Positions 4,245 to 47,474 of a stretch of 48,038 nt of DNA are shown here, one piece after another. The stretch is from a virus (taxonomy: Duplodnaviria > Heunggongvirae > Uroviricota > Caudoviricetes): the IMG/VR virus record IMGVR_UViG_3300011840_000036, positions 1 through 48,038 of that record. One strand, 5' to 3'. The first letter of the stretch is position 1; every line of letters begins with the position of its first letter. The position numbers and the translations under genes are program-made. Under the pieces are notes generated by a model. That model did no database searches. It saw nothing but the letters and a program-made list of their open reading frames with translations, and had not been told where the DNA came from.

Positions 4245-4799
4245 CTATTTAATACTCAGCAACTGCTCGACGGTCATATTTTTAATTGCGCTCCTGTTTA
4301 CAAGAGTCCACCCCTGCTTCTCCAGATAAAAGCGGAAAGTATCCAGAGTACAGACGAGAGCGCCGTCAGGAACGGTTTCGGTGAATTTGATATTGCCGCG
4401 TTCGTCGAAGTGAACAACGAGAGTGCGACCATCACCAGGAATTATTTTGTCTGTGGTAGTGGTATTAAGCTGGTACAACTCTGCCTCCATGCGATCGAAT
4501 TCAGCGATGTAGGCTTCCTTGAAAGCTGCGGCTTTTTTGCCCGTGAAGCCCATCACCAGGAAAACGAAGCCGTTTTTGGTGATTTGGTACATAGGGAGTT
4601 TGCGCCCGGTTGAGTCGGTGTATTCGCTCACCTTAAAATTAAGGGCAGTGAATTCAGGGGAGCAATCCAGTAATTTTATTTTTTGAATAACATTGTCGTG
4701 GCGTTTGCCAAAGAACTCGGCGATCGCAACAGACGTAGTGACAGCGCGACCATTTTCGATGGTTACGTCAGGTTGAGAAAGGGTAGGGATAGTAGCCAT
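4245..4799 (-). CDS. rha: Rha-family phage regulatory protein (antirepressor-like)
   Basis: Motif TTSVAIAEFFGKRHDNVIQKI typical of the Rha N-terminal domain. Start chosen at the internal Met (MATIPTLSQPDV..., GAGG 9 nt upstream); the six-frame ORF extends to 5096 but that extension contains a minus-strand terminator hairpin. Confidence 0.75.
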   Translation of the reverse strand: MATIPTLSQPDVTIENGRAVTTSVAIAEFFGKRHDNVIQKIKLLDCSPEFTALNFKVSEYTDSTGRKLPMYQITKNGFVFLVMGFTGKKAAAFKEAYIAEFDRMEAELYQLNTTTTDKIIPGDGRTLVVHFDERGNIKFTETVPDGALVCTLDTFRFYLEKQGWTLVNRSAIKNMTVEQLLSIK

Positions 4800-4968
4800 G
4801 ATAGCAGCCTCGTTAGTGAATTTGATTAACTCACCACCAAGGTTTTCCACGACCATAAGGGTGGTGAGACGTACAGGGGTGGAAATACCGGTCACTAACG
4901 AACCCGGCCAGCCTTGCGGCTGCCCTGCACGTCCCACCATAATCTGAATGTGGCTGTGCATTACGCAT

Positions 4969-4992
4969 AAAAAAACCGCCTGAGCGCGGTTA
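4969..4992 (-). terminator. Putative Rho-independent terminator (minus strand)
   Basis: Plus strand reads AAAAAAACCGCctgagcGCGGTT; on the minus strand this is a 6-bp GC-rich stem followed by a 7-T run. Confidence 0.4.
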
Positions 4993-5316
4993 TGCGCGTT
5001 AGTGAACATCGGGTTTCCACGCCCGGCACCCGTTTTATGAGGTGCAGGTGCACTATAATTCCACCCGTTCTGGTTTTCAATAGCTACATTCAACATTTTC
5101 TCTACCTTTCATCACCTAAGTGAACTTTGTGATGCGGTGCCTGGTGCCTCCAGGTGACGTTAACCAGTTAACAATTAACGCCGGATGATTCACCCATAAC
5201 ACTTGTGTTTTTAACTGTTCTGCGTGCGCTGAGCCGCATTCACCGCATCACGAAATTCACTTTTTACTTCATAGACCGTGATATGATTTAGCTTTCCACA
5301 GTAAAAAGGAGTGTTT

Positions 5317-12122: not shown

Positions 12123-12256
12123 CGAAAACGGCTTGCTGTAACGGCAGAGTTAAGTAGAATTGCTGCGGGTGCTTGAGGCTATCTGCCTCGGGCATGAACA
12201 CCAACGGCAGATAGATAAAAGCCCCACCCGACTATAAATCGAAGTGAGGCCCCTAT

Positions 12257-12469
12257 ATGCTCGTCACATATAGATTGCCTCTTACGGACCGAAAGGTCAA
12301 GGAGAAGCAGGCTATGAAGCAGCAAAAGGCGATGTTAATCGCCCTGATCGTCATCTGTTTAACCGTCATAGTGACGGCACTGGTAACGAGGAAAGACCTC
12401 TGCGAGGTACGAATCCGAACCGGCCAGACGGAGGTCGCTGTCTTCACAGCTTACGAACCTGAGGAGTAA
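12257..12469 (+). CDS. mok-like overlapping reading frame (modulator of killing) of a hok/sok-type locus
   Basis: 70-aa ORF starting 57 nt upstream of hok and read in the same frame through hok, as in hok/mok loci. Confidence 0.45.
   Translation: MLVTYRLPLTDRKVKEKQAMKQQKAMLIALIVICLTVIVTALVTRKDLCEVRIRTGQTEVAVFTAYEPEE
12314..12469 (+). CDS. hokD: Hok/Gef family type I toxin (HokD/RelF-like)
   Basis: 51-aa product MKQQKAMLIALIVICLTVIVTALVTRKDLCEVRIRTGQTEVAVFTAYEPEE is a typical Hok peptide (single TM segment, conserved C-terminus); followed by a terminator. Confidence 0.8.
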   Translation: MKQQKAMLIALIVICLTVIVTALVTRKDLCEVRIRTGQTEVAVFTAYEPEE

Positions 12470-14352: not shown

Positions 14353-14730
14353 ATGACTGAACGCATAGAATTTGTTTTGCCTTACCCGCCGACGGTGAAT
14401 CCCTACTGGCGACGTCATGGCAATACGTATTTCATCTCGGAGGCCGGAAAGCGTTATCGCCGTGATGTGGCGCTAATTGTTCGCCAGCAGCGGTTGAAAT
14501 TAAACCTGTCCGGAAGGCTGGCGATAAAGATTATTGCAGAGCCACCGGATAAGCGCCGTCGTGACCTGGACAACCTGTTGAAAGCGCCACTGGATGCGCT
14601 GACGCATGCCGGACTACTCATAGACGACGAGCAATTTGATGAAATCAATATTGTGCGTGGTCTGCCTGTTTGCGGTGGGCGACTGGGTGTGAATATATTC
14701 GTAATAAGAGGATGTAATGATGTTGCGTGA
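14353..14730 (+). CDS. rusA: Holliday junction resolvase RusA
   Basis: 125-aa ORF; motifs [10 protein letters not shown] and [19 protein letters not shown] match the RusA family by eye. Confidence 0.85.
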
Positions 14731-15091
14731 TATTCAGCTGGTTATGGAGCGGTGGGGAGCATGGGCAGCAAATAATCATGAAGATGTAACATGGCCCTCG
14801 ATAGCTGCTGGTTTTAAAGGATTAATCCCGGCTAAAGTGAAATCACGTCCTCAGTGTTCTGATGATGACGCCATGATAATTTGTGGCTGTATGGCACGAT
14901 TAAACAAGAATAATCAGTATTTGCACGATTTGTTGGTGGATTATTACGTAGGTGGAATGACATTTATGGCTCTTGCACGTAAGCATAGATGTTCTGATGG
15001 GCTTATTGGTAAAAGACTTTATAAAGCAGAAGGTATTATTGAAGGAATGCTTATGGCTCTGAATGTCAGGTTAGATATGGATATGCGGTAG
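14717..15091 (+). CDS. Late-gene antitermination protein Q (QuuD-like small Q family)
   Basis: 124-aa [39 protein letters not shown]... closely resembles DLP12 QuuD as recalled; located just upstream of the late region. Confidence 0.8.
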
Positions 15092-15241
15092 GGATATATA
15101 GTGACTATGGTTATGTTTTCTATGTTTATAATCAATGTGTTTATTTTGTGGTCGTGAATTTTATGGAAAGTAAACAAAATGTTGCCAGGTGAATTGAAAA
15201 TATTGATAATCAATCTTCATCATTAAATAAAAGGAGTGTTT

Positions 15242-16060
15242 ATGTGGATTGTGTTAGCACTGTCACTGTCAACTCTCAGTTGGCATAAGGTAGTGGCTTT
15301 TTCATTGTTGACGGTGTCTGTTGTCCTGGCTGTGCTTAATGATATTATTGATTGGCCTGTGTTGTTTCTTGTTGCTACAATCGTTTTTTTTATTATTTTG
15401 AAGTTCAACTGGAAATATAACGCCTGGGCTAAATCCATATATGAAGCTGGCATAGTTTTATCAGCCATAGCATTATCTTTCCATTTATGGCCAGGGTTTC
15501 ACAATCCTGTAGTGCTAAAGTCTGTTACTGTCGGACCTCAAAGCACTCCCTATACAATGTATTTTAATTTTGATAAAGCACTGGTGCCATTTTTGTTAGT
15601 CCTGTGTACAGCTTCTTTGTTTAAAAAAGAAGTGAAATCAGAAGTATCTTTGTGGAAGTGGGGGGGGCTGTTGCTCTCTGTTCCTCTTATCCTGTTTTTG
15701 GCTGTTTTTTTTGGTGGGTTAAAGCCAGAGATTCATTTTCCTGAGTGGTTGCCAGAGTTTATATTGGCTAATTTGTTTTTTGTGTCTCTGGCAGAGGAAT
15801 CATTATTTAGAGGGTATATTCAATCACGGCTATCAGAAGTGACGTCTCCATTGGTTGCGTTAATTGTGGCGTCTTTGTTGTTTGGTTTTTTTCACTATTC
15901 AGGTGGTGCTTTACTTGTATTATTTGCCACGTTATCTGGTGTTGTGTATGGATTGTCATGGATGTGGAGTGGGCGCTTGTGGGTGGCAACCCTTTTCCAT
16001 TTTGGTCTGAATCTGTGTCACTTGTTATTCTTTACCTATCCATTCTTAAAATATAATTGA
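15242..16060 (+). CDS. CPBP-family (CAAX protease/Abi-type) intramembrane metalloprotease; moron
   Basis: Multi-pass membrane protein with EESLFRGY and FGFFH motifs typical of the CPBP/Abi family; AT-rich; AAGGAG RBS; followed by its own terminator. Confidence 0.75.
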   Translation: MWIVLALSLSTLSWHKVVAFSLLTVSVVLAVLNDIIDWPVLFLVATIVFFIILKFNWKYNAWAKSIYEAGIVLSAIALSFHLWPGFHNPVVLKSVTVGPQSTPYTMYFNFDKALVPFLLVLCTASLFKKEVKSEVSLWKWGGLLLSVPLILFLAVFFGGLKPEIHFPEWLPEFILANLFFVSLAEESLFRGYIQSRLSEVTSPLVALIVASLLFGFFHYSGGALLVLFATLSGVVYGLSWMWSGRLWVATLFHFGLNLCHLLFFTYPFLKYN

Positions 16061-16200
16061 TTTTTTCTATGGCTTTAAATTTATAACACTGAAAAATAGC
16101 AAGATGTGACATTTGCATGAAAAATATGCACGGCAAAGCATTTACGTACGTAAAAAATCATGTATGCTTTTAAGAGTGGTTATTTCACCGCATAGCCTGA

Positions 16201-16223
16201 ACCCGCCTCTGAGCGGGTTTTTT
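16201..16223 (+). terminator. Rho-independent terminator after the CPBP gene
   Basis: ACCCGC-ctctga-GCGGGT stem followed by TTTTTT. Confidence 0.65.
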
Positions 16224-16346
16224 GTGCTCGCAAAGTAGCGCAGTGCGTTAAATGTGCTGGTGGTTATTAATACTGGTCCTTCTGCTTGCAGGCTTTTTCG
16301 ACAAGAGTTATTGGTATGTCACGTTAACCAGAAAAGGGAAAAAGAC

Positions 16347-16544
16347 ATGCTAAAACAGCAGGATATGACCGAAACCGCCAGAGTGGTGTTTAATGAATTA
16401 AGCGTCACCGAACCGGCGACCGTCGGGGAGATTGCGCAGAATACTTACCTTTCACGCGAGCGCTGCCAGTTAATACTGACCCAGCTTGTTATGGCGGGCC
16501 TGGCAGATTATCAGTTCGGTTGTTACAGACGCCTTCCGCAGTGA
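16347..16544 (+). CDS. Small winged-helix-like protein (65 aa)
   Basis: Start at MLKQQDMTETARVVFNELSVTEPATVGEIAQNTYLSRERCQLIL...; pattern resembles the N-terminal wHTH of the 9611 protein; sits directly upstream of the methyltransferase. Confidence 0.45.
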   Translation: MLKQQDMTETARVVFNELSVTEPATVGEIAQNTYLSRERCQLILTQLVMAGLADYQFGCYRRLPQ

Positions 16545-16694
16545 AGGCTTTTTTATTTGTGGTAATGGGCGGCTGGTGGGTGTTAGCGGCACCTGCCAGC
16601 CATCTGCTCATGCGTTGGGGTCACAAGCAAACCTCAGGCCCATCTGCTTTGCGCAAAAGCGGAATGAGCCTATCAGAGAAGTGCTTATTGATCT

Positions 16695-17741
16695 ATGGTT
16701 AATACTGTAAAAATATCCAGTTGTGAGTTAATCAACGCTGATTGCCTGGAATTTATCCAGACCTTACCGGAAAACTCTGTCGATTTGATAGTCACAGACC
16801 CGCCATACTTTAAAGTGAAGCCCGAGGGCTGGGATAACCAGTGGAAGGGTGACGATGATTACCTGAAGTGGCTGGACCAGTGTCTGGCGCAGTTCTGGCG
16901 GGTACTGAAGCCCGCCGGAAGTCTTTACCTGTTCTGTGGGCATCGTCTGGCATCTGATATCGAGATCATGTTGCGTGAACGTTTCAACGTGCTTAACCAT
17001 ATCATCTGGGCGAAGCCGTCCGGACGCTGGAACGGGTGCAGGAAGGAAAGCCTGAGGGCATATTTCCCGGCAACAGAGCACATACTGTTTGCTGAACATT
17101 ACCAGGGGCCATATCGGCCAAAAAATGATGGCTATGTGGCAAAGGGGCGCGAGCTTAAACAGCATGTCATGGCTCCGCTGATTTCTTACTTTCGTGATGC
17201 GCGTGAATCACTGGGGATTACGCCGAAACAGATAGCGGAAGCCACCGGAAAGAAAAACATGGCTTCGCACTGGTTTGGTGCCAGCCAGTGGCAGTTACCG
17301 AACGAAGCTGATTACAGAAAGCTGCAGGCGTTGTTTGCGCGTGTTGCAGCAGAAAAACATCAACGCGGAGAACTGGAAAAGCCACACCACCATCTGGTCA
17401 GCACATACAGCGAACTGAACCGGCAATATGTCAGCCTGCTGGAAGAGTATAAATCTTTGCGGCGTTATTTTTCCGTATCGGCTGCCGTTCCTTATACGGA
17501 TGTCTGGACGCACAAACCTGTGCAGTATTATCCGGGTAAACATCCGTGTGAGAAGCCAGCAGATATGTTGCGGCAGATAATTACAGCCAGCAGTCGTCCG
17601 GGGGAACTGGTTGCAGACTTTTTTATGGGATCGGGGGCGACTATAAAGGCTGCGCTCTCTCTGGAACGTAGAGCTATTGGTGTAGAGCTGGAAACGGACA
17701 GGTTTAATCAAACGTTTGATGAAATAAGAAACAATAGTTAG
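16695..17741 (+). CDS. Orphan DNA methyltransferase (beta-class N6-adenine/N4-cytosine type)
   Basis: 348-aa ORF; DPPY motif near the N-terminus (LIVTDPPYF) and FxGxG motif near the C-terminus (DFFMGSGAT); no adjacent restriction endonuclease. Confidence 0.85.
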   Translation: MVNTVKISSCELINADCLEFIQTLPENSVDLIVTDPPYFKVKPEGWDNQWKGDDDYLKWLDQCLAQFWRVLKPAGSLYLFCGHRLASDIEIMLRERFNVLNHIIWAKPSGRWNGCRKESLRAYFPATEHILFAEHYQGPYRPKNDGYVAKGRELKQHVMAPLISYFRDARESLGITPKQIAEATGKKNMASHWFGASQWQLPNEADYRKLQALFARVAAEKHQRGELEKPHHHLVSTYSELNRQYVSLLEEYKSLRRYFSVSAAVPYTDVWTHKPVQYYPGKHPCEKPADMLRQIITASSRPGELVADFFMGSGATIKAALSLERRAIGVELETDRFNQTFDEIRNNS

Positions 17742-17907
17742 CTTTTTTTTGCGAACTTTTTAATTTTTATAATATTGTATAATTATGTTTTAAATACCTG
17801 ACATTGTTTGTATTGAAACAGGAGCGGAATTCATTATTATTCTTCGTCGGTTCCAAGGGAGGGTAATTTATGTATCCGGGCATCTCATCCACACCTGAGG
17901 AACCAAT

Positions 17908-17983
<76 letters not shown>

Positions 17984-17986
17984 TAT

Positions 17987-18061
<75 letters not shown>

Positions 18062-18414
18062 TCATTATTCTGGCAACACGAATTATACAGCACTGGCGTG
18101 TTTTTTTACGTGGGGGCAGGTTGTTTTAAGACATCTTTGGTCCTCAGGCTATGGTTTAAGGTCGGTTATAGCCTCAGTGCTGATTTTTTACAACAATGGA
18201 ATGGTGCATTATCGGTGGAGATTTAGTATTTCCTGGCAGGGCTGATGATGCACTATCCCGGTGTTGTAAAAACACTACAGAGGTGTTCCTCAGTGCGAGG
18301 GTGGTTTAAAGAGTCGGTTTAGCGGGAAACCACAGTATCCTTGTGGGGCTGGATGCTTCGGGAGGCACCCGACACTTCTGAATACAATTAAATCATGCGT
18401 TTTTATATGCCATT

Positions 18415-18441
18415 AACCGCCGCTCCAGGCGGTTTTTTTTA
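18415..18441 (+). terminator. Rho-independent terminator
   Basis: AACCGCC-gctcca-GGCGGTT stem followed by a run of 8 T. Confidence 0.65.
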
Positions 18442-19060
18442 TTCAAAGTTCGGGGTTACAAGTGCTCGCTTCCACTACTTTGGTTTTTACAATTATAGTT
18501 TTTGGGAGAATCTTCATGGGGCGTGCTTCATCCTTTGCAATTCGCTGATCCTGGTGTATGAGACAATGAAGTCCATGCGGTAACGAAGGTCGGATATCTG
18601 CTCGGTTTTATTCTGGTAATTTGGGGCCTTCGCTTTTTACGGATGCGGGCAGCACAAGGTTATTGGGGCGACGGCCATCATTGTTGCATTTGCAGGAGTT
18701 ATTCTGAGTCCGACAAGAATATGCTGTTGAGTGCACGGCTGGCTGAAAGAAACTGCCACCTGAAGAATGGTGAATTTATTTAGTAGGGGATCCTGGATGA
18801 AATTGAACGGGATGATAACTCCGAAATTAGTCCACTGAGGAATGCCTTATACAAGAGATCATGGATAACCCTCGGGCATTTACAGGAAGCAAACGCCACT
18901 TACTTCACTACCCCGGAGAAGTGGGGACTGTCAATATGACAGATAACAAAATCTGAAAATGAGTCTCTCCAGTTGAGAAATATACGATGAAGGAGCATTC
19001 TGTTCAGCGCAAAGTAATCCGTTTTGTGATGAATAATCTCGAGAGTCATTTTTCATTCCT

Positions 19061-19089
19061 GCCAGCCTCCCCAGAGCTGGCTTTTTTTT
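19061..19089 (+). terminator. Rho-independent terminator upstream of the lysis genes (tR'-like candidate)
   Basis: GCCAGC...GCTGGC stem followed by TTTTTTTT. Confidence 0.6.
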
Positions 19090-19154
19090 GAGGCCTGTTC
19101 TGACGGGCTTTGTTGTATTCGCTCCACGTCCCATACATATCAAATCTGAATAAC

Positions 19155-19200
19155 ACCACACAAAGGCATCTGCGGATGTCTTTGGTGTGGTGTTTTTTTT
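19155..19200 (+). terminator. Second hairpin plus T-run directly upstream of the holin gene
   Basis: Imperfect long inverted repeat CCACACAAAGGCATC...GATGTCTTTGGTGTGG followed by TTTTTTTT. Confidence 0.5.
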
Positions 19201-19240
19201 GGTCCGCTGGTGGCCTTTTTTAATTTACAGGAGAAAAAGT

Positions 19241-19633
19241 ATGTCTGAACCCTTATCCGGTTCCGGCACAGCTGCTGCGCTCGGTGGGGCGACTGTTTTC
19301 GGGCTGTTTACCGGAACGGATTTCGGGATTGTGTTTGGCGCATTTGCGGGGGCGTTGTTTGTTGCAACGATACCGCAGGCGCTTTCAGCATGGCGGGTGG
19401 CGGCACATTTTCTTGTGTCATTTATCGTCGGCGTACTGGGTGCGCGTTTGCTTTCAGCCTGGGTGGCATCAAAAACTGGTTATGACGGCACGTCTGCAGA
19501 TGCATTGTGTGCGGTGCTGGTATCGCTGGTGTCGGTAAAGATTATGTCATTCATCCACCAGCAGGATATCGCATCACTGGTGTCTGGTCTGTTCTCGCGC
19601 CTGCGGGGCGGAGGAGGCGGCAATGTTAAGTAA
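19241..19633 (+). CDS. Putative holin/lysis membrane protein
   Basis: 130-aa hydrophobic protein with Gly/Ala-rich TM segments, first gene of the cluster preceding the endolysin; AGGAG RBS. Confidence 0.5.
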   Translation: MSEPLSGSGTAAALGGATVFGLFTGTDFGIVFGAFAGALFVATIPQALSAWRVAAHFLVSFIVGVLGARLLSAWVASKTGYDGTSADALCAVLVSLVSVKIMSFIHQQDIASLVSGLFSRLRGGGGGNVK

Positions 19634-47289: not shown

Positions 47290-47474
47290 AATGACGTCCT
47301 CTAGTGGTTTCTAAACTTAAACTATCACCACCGTCAGGTTCCAATCATCGGGTGGTGAGACGCACAGGGTTGGAACTACCGGGAAACCGACCGACGAGCT
47401 TTTCAGCTCCCCCATGCGCCCCACAATAATTCATATGTGCGCGTGCATACGAGAAAAAACACTTGTTATATCTG

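Follow-up and report, generated by a model that had tools for sequence, protein, structure and literature searches.

In lambdoid phages, the interval between the antiterminator gene Q and the lysis genes is a known slot for cargo such as stx1/stx2 (Shiga toxin) and nanS-p. The late promoter pR' is strong and constitutive in lambda, and the Q proteins of lambda, 21 and 82 each recognise only their own binding site, which adjoins pR'. The short pR'-tR' transcripts include the 6S RNA of lambda and StxS; the stx genes lie downstream of tR' and are Q-dependent. Here we describe a gene that occupies the same slot in a 48,038-nucleotide stretch of DNA (IMG/VR record IMGVR_UViG_3300011840_000036, positions 1 to 48,038; hereafter the window), a complete lambdoid prophage with a phiP27-like backbone, an integrase at its left end and the structural genes to the right. 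The gene, which directly follows Q, encodes an intramembrane endopeptidase of the CPBP family, is inherited together with one particular Q allele and is very probably transcribed in the lysogen.

The founder of the CPBP family, Rce1 (PDB 4CAD), is a type II CAAX prenyl endopeptidase and is 17-18 % identical to the window protein, whose N-terminal half, including a conserved PGFHN...MYxNxDKA loop, is specific to an enterobacterial subfamily and unlike Rce1. To our knowledge, no prenylated CAAX substrates are to be expected in E. coli. SpdC of Staphylococcus aureus acts as a partner of a glucosaminidase or of a sensor kinase, does not require proteolysis for this and is reported to have lost catalytic residues; this protein (SpdC/LyrA, PDB 6U0O) is 15 % identical to the window protein. 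Abx1 of group B Streptococcus is likewise a sensor kinase partner for which proteolysis is not required (PMC3578759). Other members of the same family are immunity proteins, i.e., SkkI, PlnI and PlnLR of Gram-positive bacteria and the 216-residue McsI of microcin S, a CAAX-family protein that confers toxin immunity in E. coli (PMC3316575). Genes of this last kind adjoin a bacteriocin and an exporter gene, whereas the 272-codon gene described here has Q and a TrmB-like open reading frame (ORF) for neighbours. Taken as analogies, the family precedents may thus lead in three directions: proteolytic immunity to membrane-acting peptides, non-proteolytic modulation, and maturation of exported peptides (MroQ, myxosortases).

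A complete CPBP endopeptidase encoded behind Q

The Q gene, the CPBP gene and the coding signals of the latter are arranged as follows.

14717-15091, plus strand: Q antiterminator, short Q21-family allele of 124 amino acids (PF06530, E 5.9e-51)
15229-15236, plus strand: ribosome-binding site AAAAGGAG, 5 nt 5' of the CPBP start codon
15242-16060, plus strand: gene for a CPBP (type II CAAX protease-like) intramembrane glutamic endopeptidase, 272 amino acids, ATG start, multi-pass membrane protein
15794-15811, plus strand: CPBP motif 1, EESLFR, residues 185-190
15881-15895, plus strand: CPBP motif 2, FGFFH, residues 214-218
15998-16012, plus strand: CPBP motif 3, HFGLN, residues 253-257

An alternative, longer GTG start at 15236 falls within the ribosome-binding site, and RefSeq annotates the close relatives of the gene in the 819-bp form. 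An initial annotation, made without database searches, had described a multi-pass membrane protein with the CPBP motifs EExxxR and FxxxH, preceded by its own ribosome-binding site and situated between Q and the late/lysis region. All of this holds: the two motifs are present as EESLFR and FGFFH and are joined by HFGLN, AAAAGGAG stands at a suitable distance from the ATG, and the profile search proposed as a check returned Pfam family PF02517 (Rce1-like, formerly “Abi”) with an E-value of 1.2e-19 and 70.8 bits, above the curated cut-off of 22.4, over positions 3-92 of the 93 in the profile.

In an alignment of 38 homologues (47-85 % identical), residues E185, E186, R190, F214, H218, H253 and N257 are invariant; every catalytic residue is thus conserved, which sets the protein apart from SpdC and Abx1. 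The AlphaFold2 model derived from the alignment has a mean predicted local distance difference test score of 95.5 and a predicted template modelling score of 0.92. It displays the Rce1-like helical membrane fold, with SpdC and Rce1 as the sole strong structural matches, and the three motifs map to helices 170-198, 203-216 and 246-263, which are consecutive transmembrane helices. Matches to the named NCBIfam subfamilies (the myxosortases MrtX/C/P/S/J/Z, MroQ and the ABC-permease fusion), nine in all, lie far below cut-off, the best scoring 45.7 bits against a required 435. The protein is a member of the CPBP family, in which every defining feature that could be checked here is present, and it belongs to none of the named subfamilies. 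Residue conservation, together with a ratio of nonsynonymous to synonymous substitutions (dN/dS) of 0.10-0.30 between alleles, makes it likely that the protein is an active protease. In PHROGs it falls into phrog_13291, which is annotated as “unknown function”.

Inheritance with one allele of Q

When the 1,132-bp region was compared with 5,426 complete RefSeq genomes of E. coli, the CPBP region was found in 572 of them, most copies being 90-95 % identical to the window. The carriers listed are nearly all enterohaemorrhagic or Shiga toxin-producing lineages (EHEC/STEC), i.e., O157:H7 including EDL933, O111, O145, O103 and O121, in which the gene is labelled “CPBP family intramembrane glutamic endopeptidase” or “lysostaphin resistance A-like protein”. 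As an annotation the gene is therefore not new, since it already figures in hundreds of genomes. What the present analysis adds is its strict linkage to Q over three Q lineages, a transcription start site at the predicted promoter, the chromosomal origin of the family and the proposal, open to experiment, that the interval from pR' to the first terminator may hold a protein-coding gene.

Q and the 150-nt intergenic stretch that separates it from the CPBP gene are present at a coverage of at least 80 % in 571 genomes, and none of the 5,426 genomes carries this Q allele without CPBP, so that no true empty site was found. That the CPBP gene occurs only with this Q allele points to a Q-CPBP module inherited as one piece, not to a free insertion. 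In about 45 other genomes, the match is confined to the first two-thirds of Q, which is followed by another Q C-terminus and other cargo, e.g., genes for ORF6N-domain proteins. In IMG/VR, Q lies directly 5' of a CPBP relative in 41 of 43 loci, one of the two exceptions being a 732-bp fragment. These loci include a second sub-lineage with the same Q type and a CPBP protein about 60-64 % identical (our loci L017, L019, L058, L059 and L062), as well as a lineage with a Q of the lambda family (PF03589) and a CPBP protein about 55-58 % identical (L020, L021 and L061). The Q and CPBP alleles diverge in parallel, which in combination with the low dN/dS implies that the pairing is old and that the CPBP gene is under purifying selection.

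Prophages carry the gene, but it is missing from deposited phage genomes: a tblastn search of 50,697 phage records gave two weak Listeria matches only. The same search against 72,556 plasmids returned no E. coli relative except for an EDL933 fragment, which speaks against close kinship to McsI. This sole E. coli “plasmid” copy (H131, NZ_CP124741.1) stands on a 286,775-bp record labelled as an EDL933 plasmid and has the appearance of a chromosomal or prophage fragment that was misassigned, not of a true plasmid location.

Transcription in the lysogen

Two promoters can be recognised between Q and the CPBP gene.

15127-15139, plus strand: P1, with a perfect -10 TATAAT (15127-15132), a poor -35 and a weak start site at about 15139, as read from the sequence
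15182-15217, plus strand: P2, the main promoter, with TTGCCA (15182-15187), a 17-nt spacer, GATAAT (15205-15210) and the start site at 15217

P2 scores 10 of 12 in a promoter scan. Its hexamers are invariant in four alleles that are 85-99 % identical overall (the window, a pigeon strain, EDL933 and C311) and whose flanking bases vary; the TATAAT of P1 is invariant in the same four. The corresponding start site in EDL933 was predicted from the sequence at about 1264543-1264545. In the Cappable-seq data for E. coli O157:H7 EDL933 (PMC10469882, Table S5), a start site at 1264544 on the plus strand appears in all eight conditions, where it is listed as gene-specific for a “CPBP family intramembrane metalloprotease”. 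The conditions comprise exponential and stationary phase in LB, M9, acid and salt, none of them involving prophage induction, and the signal of 8-109 is similar to that of the aroP start site (PMC10469882). This position maps to 15217 of the window, so that the start lies 7 nt behind the -10 and the ATG follows 25 nt later. The same table lists another start site, 1264465, in one of the eight conditions only, stationary phase with salt (PMC10469882); it maps to about 15139, in agreement with P1.

The 25-nt leader of the CPBP mRNA has no significant structure and its ribosome-binding site is exposed. No terminator was found between P2 and the ORF, the first one (16199-16220) following the gene. 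The CPBP gene differs in this respect from stx, which lies behind tR' and depends on Q. Transcription of the CPBP gene in the lysogen is thus very probable, having been measured for the 95 % identical ortholog of EDL933 in the gene-assigned sites of Table S5, and the expression from its own promoter foreseen by the initial annotation holds for that ortholog in all eight uninduced conditions. Two points weigh against extending this too far, namely that the start site belongs to the EDL933 ortholog rather than to the window phage, and that the comparison used gene-assigned sites, so that a further unassigned start site 3' of CPBP in EDL933 is possible.

A second constitutive start site, likewise listed in eight of eight conditions, is found at 1265979 of the EDL933 record (L003), upstream of the helix-turn-helix gene RS06220. 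It lies between the frameshifted TrmB-like ORF and this regulator, which precedes the tRNA genes ileZ-argN-argO. The window has a methylase gene instead of the helix-turn-helix gene, and no promoter equivalent to 1265979 was predicted there.

The cargo slot and the end of the module

Between Q and the backbone block lies a cargo site of variable content. The block itself consists of a terminator, a 65-amino-acid TrmB-like ORF, a methylase or helix-turn-helix gene, tRNA genes and sometimes stx, after which come the lysis genes. In the window, the features that follow the CPBP gene are:

16061-16162, plus strand: 3' untranslated stretch that co-travels with CPBP, the end of the Q-CPBP module
16199-16226, plus strand: intrinsic terminator of the shared backbone, the first to follow the promoter; candidate tR'
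16347-16544, plus strand: 65-amino-acid TrmB-like ORF of the downstream backbone, outside the module
16695-17741, plus strand: N6/N4 DNA methyltransferase gene of the downstream backbone, outside the module

The 3' stretch is common to the alleles of the window, the pigeon strain, EDL933 and C311 and missing in phiP27 and EH2201. Homology to the backbone of phiP27 and the Stx2 phages begins at about 16145-16170, and the TrmB-like and methyltransferase genes are common to phiP27 and many Stx2 phages with other Q types. It is this same backbone that carries stx2 in phiP27 and many Stx2 phages, with the TrmB-like ORF, the methylase and the tRNAs.

What fills the slot differs from phage to phage. 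In the Stx2 phage EH2201, whose Q is only 46 % identical to that of the window, it is empty and Q is directly followed by the backbone terminator. In phiP27 it holds the gene for a GIY-YIG protein, in Stx2a_1447 two reverse-strand genes, in phiSTEC1575 small ORFs, and in STEC306 and CU37RT-2 an ORF6N gene with or without one for an OB-fold protein. In C311, the same Q-CPBP pair (about 86 % identical) stands directly 5' of stx1d (L004 4627-7985). A reverse-strand ORF of 105 amino acids lies between CPBP and stx1d in this phage, the terminator after CPBP is weakened, and late transcription of stx1d would need to cross the CPBP gene. In phiP27 (L002 2645-2740), a strong promoter-like site, TTGATT-16-TAAAAT, lies 12 nt after the Q stop codon, followed by a 12-bp hairpin devoid of a U-tract and then by the GIY-YIG cargo, with no terminator between. 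This order of promoter, cargo, backbone and terminator is also that of the window.

The hairpin at 16199-16220 (folding free energy -18.6 kcal/mol, z-score -3.1) is immediately followed by a U-tract and lies 140 nt beyond the CPBP stop codon, within DNA that is 86-93 % identical to phiP27 and Stx2 phages lacking CPBP. Since the same terminator occurs in phiP27, EH2201 and STEC306, all of them without CPBP, it is a backbone element and not, as first proposed, the gene's own. The description of the gene as AT-rich stands in relation to the window (39.1 % against 52.8 % GC) but does not set it apart from the adjacent Q (41.1 %); the anomaly in composition is one of Q plus CPBP jointly. Its proposed status as a moron is sustained in part: the EDL933 ortholog has a promoter active in the lysogen, but the terminator is not the gene's own, and the gene does not behave like an independent insert. 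A passenger fixed to a single Q module is the more apt description.

An 18-codon ORF, MKNMHGKAFTYVKNHVCF, is found at 16117-16173 on the plus strand, in the 3' stretch that co-travels with CPBP. It is open at equal length in EDL933 and C311 despite several amino-acid changes; it has no visible Shine-Dalgarno sequence and may be due to chance.

A candidate late promoter

The backbone downstream of 16163 is common to phages with at least four other Q types, some of them from other Q families. Given the site specificity of Q proteins, the binding site of the window Q should therefore lie between 15092 and 16162, where P1 and P2 are the only conserved promoters. Two elements in and just after P2 deserve attention.

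15193-15210, plus strand: tandem 9-mers ATTGAAAAT and ATTGATAAT across the P2 spacer and -10, a putative Q-binding element
15218-15223, plus strand: CATCAT at +2 to +7, -10-like, a candidate sigma-dependent pause element by sequence reading

The pattern ATTGA-N4-ATTGA occurs a single time in the 48-kb window, where 0.12 occurrences would be expected by chance. In phage 21, the annotated late control region (OL657228) consists of pR' with TTGACA, two Q-binding elements (QBEu ATTGAGCA; QBEd AATGAGCA), a -10 and start site, a pause element that covers +2 to +8, matched in location by CATCAT, and a terminator. The order of elements in P2 is the same: a -35, tandem repeats of the ATTGA type in the spacer, the -10 and a -10-like element. 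The two regions also differ. Q21 has 162 amino acids and the window Q, a distant member of the same family, 124 (E 7e-8 for the match to the Q21 structures 6p18/6jnx); the tandem repeats are spaced by 8 bp in phage 21 and by 9 bp in the window; and the distance from the start to the terminator is at most about 50 nt in phage 21 and about 1 kb in the window. In L019, of the second sub-lineage, a TTGACA...TATAAT promoter begins 19 nt after the Q stop codon and is followed by TATGAT and then by CPBP, with no terminator between. From its resemblance to the pR' of phage 21 and by elimination, P2 is slightly favoured as the promoter at which Q loads, and it more probably serves the phage as its late promoter than the CPBP gene alone. 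If so, a protein-coding gene would stand in the window where lambda and phage 21 make no more than a short RNA. Two other candidates were considered for this role. A late promoter in the backbone after the terminator is ruled out, this block being common to phages with unrelated Q proteins. TTGATT-19-TATAAC, which alone resembles a promoter in the roughly 100 bp after the CPBP stop codon, is unlikely to be the late promoter given its 19-nt spacer, the lack of a call in the scan and a 6-nt deletion that destroys it in C311.

Several observations weigh against P2 as the late promoter, and some of them would suit a classical moron arrangement, in which P2 would serve CPBP only, in the lysogen, P1 or an unrecognised element would be the true Q-loading promoter, and CPBP would merely be read through late. 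P1 is the nearer to Q and occupies the usual place of pR', about 12 nt after the Q stop codon, as in phage 21, phiP27 and L008, P2 lying 90 nt downstream, and the -10 of P1 is invariant. The repeat spacing in P2 departs from that of the phage 21 Q-binding element and amounts to about 7 bp in L019 and about 5 bp in L017, so that no fixed spacing was found over the window, L017 and L019; in C311 both the first repeat and CATCAT are altered. Moreover, the related phage L008 has Q, a promoter, an immediate terminator and only then its cargo, and in the lineage with a lambda-family Q the CPBP gene lies after a promoter-terminator cassette, directly before the holin gene. On the other side, P1 has no usable -35, its start site is listed in just one of the eight EDL933 conditions of Table S5, which contrasts with the strong constitutive pR' of lambda, and its own tandem repeat is conserved neither in EDL933 nor in C311. 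We therefore regard a promoter private to CPBP as unlikely. No terminator separates P1 from the ORF either, so that with P1 or P2 as the late promoter CPBP would be the first gene on any transcript started behind Q.

Relatives outside prophages

Among the species representatives of GTDB, at least 379 relatives of the CPBP protein were found. The best 80 of them are 44-62 % identical and mostly of the same length, and no Q gene is near any of these 80. In 37 of the 80 (Providencia, Proteus, Photorhabdus, Xenorhabdus and other Morganellaceae), the gene sits in a fixed locus, modE-modF-CPBP-gpmA-aroG-pnuC, and in others (Enterobacter, Dickeya, Salmonella) it is solitary in varied surroundings. 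Apart from this housekeeping synteny, no bacteriocin, exporter or other recurrent partner was found near the chromosomal relatives. The occurrence of these relatives with neither Q nor a phage context indicates that the phage gene derives from an ordinary chromosomal family of enterobacteria. No relative was found in E. coli outside prophages, where no direct check for a chromosomal copy was made. Three proteins of Pseudomonas aeruginosa or P. paraeruginosa (P0073, P0088 and L142) share 61-62 % identity with the phage protein along some 200 residues, more than most of the enterobacterial chromosomal relatives (47-54 %), which suggests horizontal transfer between distant hosts.

Possible functions

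The explanation that we favour runs as follows. The CPBP gene encodes an inner-membrane glutamic endopeptidase with a complete catalytic site and forms one inherited unit with a particular Q allele. Its sigma-70 promoter, TTGCCA-17-GATAAT with the start at 15217, fires constitutively in the lysogen, as measured for the EDL933 ortholog; P2 may at the same time be the Q-loading late promoter pR', with CPBP filling the place taken by short non-coding RNAs in lambda and phage 21. The protease would then be made in the lysogen without Q, and once the prophage is induced its gene would head the late transcript that Q antiterminates. In the last and least certain step, the enzyme may cut or disable an incoming membrane-inserted peptide or protein and thereby protect the lysogen, the candidate targets being a toxin of the microcin or bacteriocin type or a membrane-inserting protein of a superinfecting phage. 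As a whole, this explanation has about an even chance of being right. A protective role in immunity or exclusion, which is argued by analogy, is more tentative and falls somewhat short of that.

A protease of benefit to the lysogen is our best guess on account of the intact catalytic site, the constitutive expression in the lysogen and the retention of the gene in prophages whose late regions decay, as in EDL933. Protection against an incoming membrane toxin or phage protein may be the most economical version of this guess. It has to be set against the absence of any match at E<=1 in PADLOC and of linked bacteriocin or exporter genes, be it here or near the chromosomal relatives, and against the fixed modF-CPBP-gpmA locus of the Morganellaceae, which suggests an ordinary cellular role rather than dedicated immunity. 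A further elaboration, which we consider doubtful, is that pR' has been co-opted for lysogenic conversion: protease would be supplied in the lysogen without Q, Q-driven late transcription would be added on induction, and EHEC lysogens would be shielded as a result, with phiP27 using its GIY-YIG gene in the same way.

The protein might instead be an envelope factor of the housekeeping type, involved in the maturation of membrane proteins or lipoproteins and with its function provided from the chromosome in other Enterobacterales, or a non-proteolytic partner of a sensor kinase or cell-wall hydrolase like Abx1 and SpdC. This seems rather unlikely, as all catalytic residues are invariant, whereas SpdC is reported to lack catalytic residues, and as the fixed phage slot behind Q would be left unexplained. 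It is less probable still that the protease acts in lytic growth, altering the envelope or the lysis machinery after induction (by holin timing, blocked re-adsorption or processing of a phage membrane protein), its expression in the lysogen being incidental. CPBP is the first ORF after Q in every phage lineage, and in the lineage with a lambda-family Q it follows the pR'-tR' cassette directly before the holin gene, with no terminator between, a position typical of Q-dependent late genes such as stx; in C311, too, it stands between Q and stx1d. A start site that is constitutive in the uninduced conditions listed for EDL933 argues the other way, and so do the chromosomal relatives in bacteria with no phage context and the state of the EDL933 prophage, in which the late region has decayed (pseudogenes, an insertion sequence element, a lysis gene on the opposite strand) and CPBP has remained intact under purifying selection. 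Very improbable, finally, is an abortive-infection (Abi) defence gene that kills the infected cell. The link to abortive infection and immunity made in the initial annotation comes down to the historical Pfam name “Abi” for PF02517, joined by the location in a prophage; it found no backing in PADLOC-DB, where no defence-protein family matched, or in gene linkage, and transcription is constitutive with no linked regulator or sensor. By linkage and by the defence models the gene is not a demonstrated Abi or immunity gene, though it may be an orphan immunity gene. In the literature searched, no paper dealt with this gene.

Other elements of the prophage

Between Q and the lysis genes, four hairpins resembling intrinsic terminators follow each other on the plus strand, at 16199, 16531, 18415 and 19089; over the scan as a whole, 14 sites were found where 4.7 were expected from shuffles. 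Serial terminators in this position are consistent with a region that only Q-modified polymerase can cross. The last two lie in a segment of about 1.1 kb (18062-19186) between a tRNA-Thr/tRNA-Gly pair and the lysis genes, which has no ORF longer than 65 amino acids and also contains a long hairpin (18172-18283) with weak matches to microRNA-precursor models. This segment corresponds to the position of stx in phiP27 and the Stx2 phages and is empty in the window.

No credible RNA family was found in or next to the CPBP gene when the window was scanned with Rfam, or when 14600-19400 was scanned with a permissive threshold, the only overlap nearby being a far-sub-threshold P9 match on the minus strand over the terminator (24.5 bits against a gathering threshold of 43). 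Elsewhere, two C4 antisense RNAs (80 and 58 bits) and the Hfq-binding small RNA IsrK (66 bits) were found on the minus strand at 4857-5045 and 47348-47431, the first C4 and IsrK overlapping the 5' part of a minus-strand ORF of 283 amino acids (4245-5096). In Salmonella Gifsy-1, IsrK controls an anti-Q protein. By analogy, the window prophage may have a second layer of control over Q that acts via an IsrK-like RNA. At 12167-12316 on the plus strand, just 5' of the DUF968-RusA-Q block, Rfam recognises a sok antitoxin RNA (104 bits), which belongs to a hok/sok-type module; related prophages have hokD annotated by RefSeq in the corresponding place.

Significance

Roughly a tenth of the complete E. 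coli genomes have this gene in a prophage, among them essentially all major EHEC lineages sampled. It is widespread and, in EDL933, constitutively transcribed in an important pathogen, though there is as yet nothing surprising about it. If it neither protects the lysogen nor shares its promoter with the late genes, it would be one more annotated CPBP gene in a known cargo slot. If it does protect against toxins or phages, it would count as a fitness factor carried by EHEC prophages, on the same backbone that carries the Shiga toxin genes. And if its promoter is the late promoter at which Q loads, this would be a simple way for a phage to express cargo in both lysogeny and lytic growth, and it would be relevant, too, to the route by which stx1d is transcribed in phages such as that of C311.

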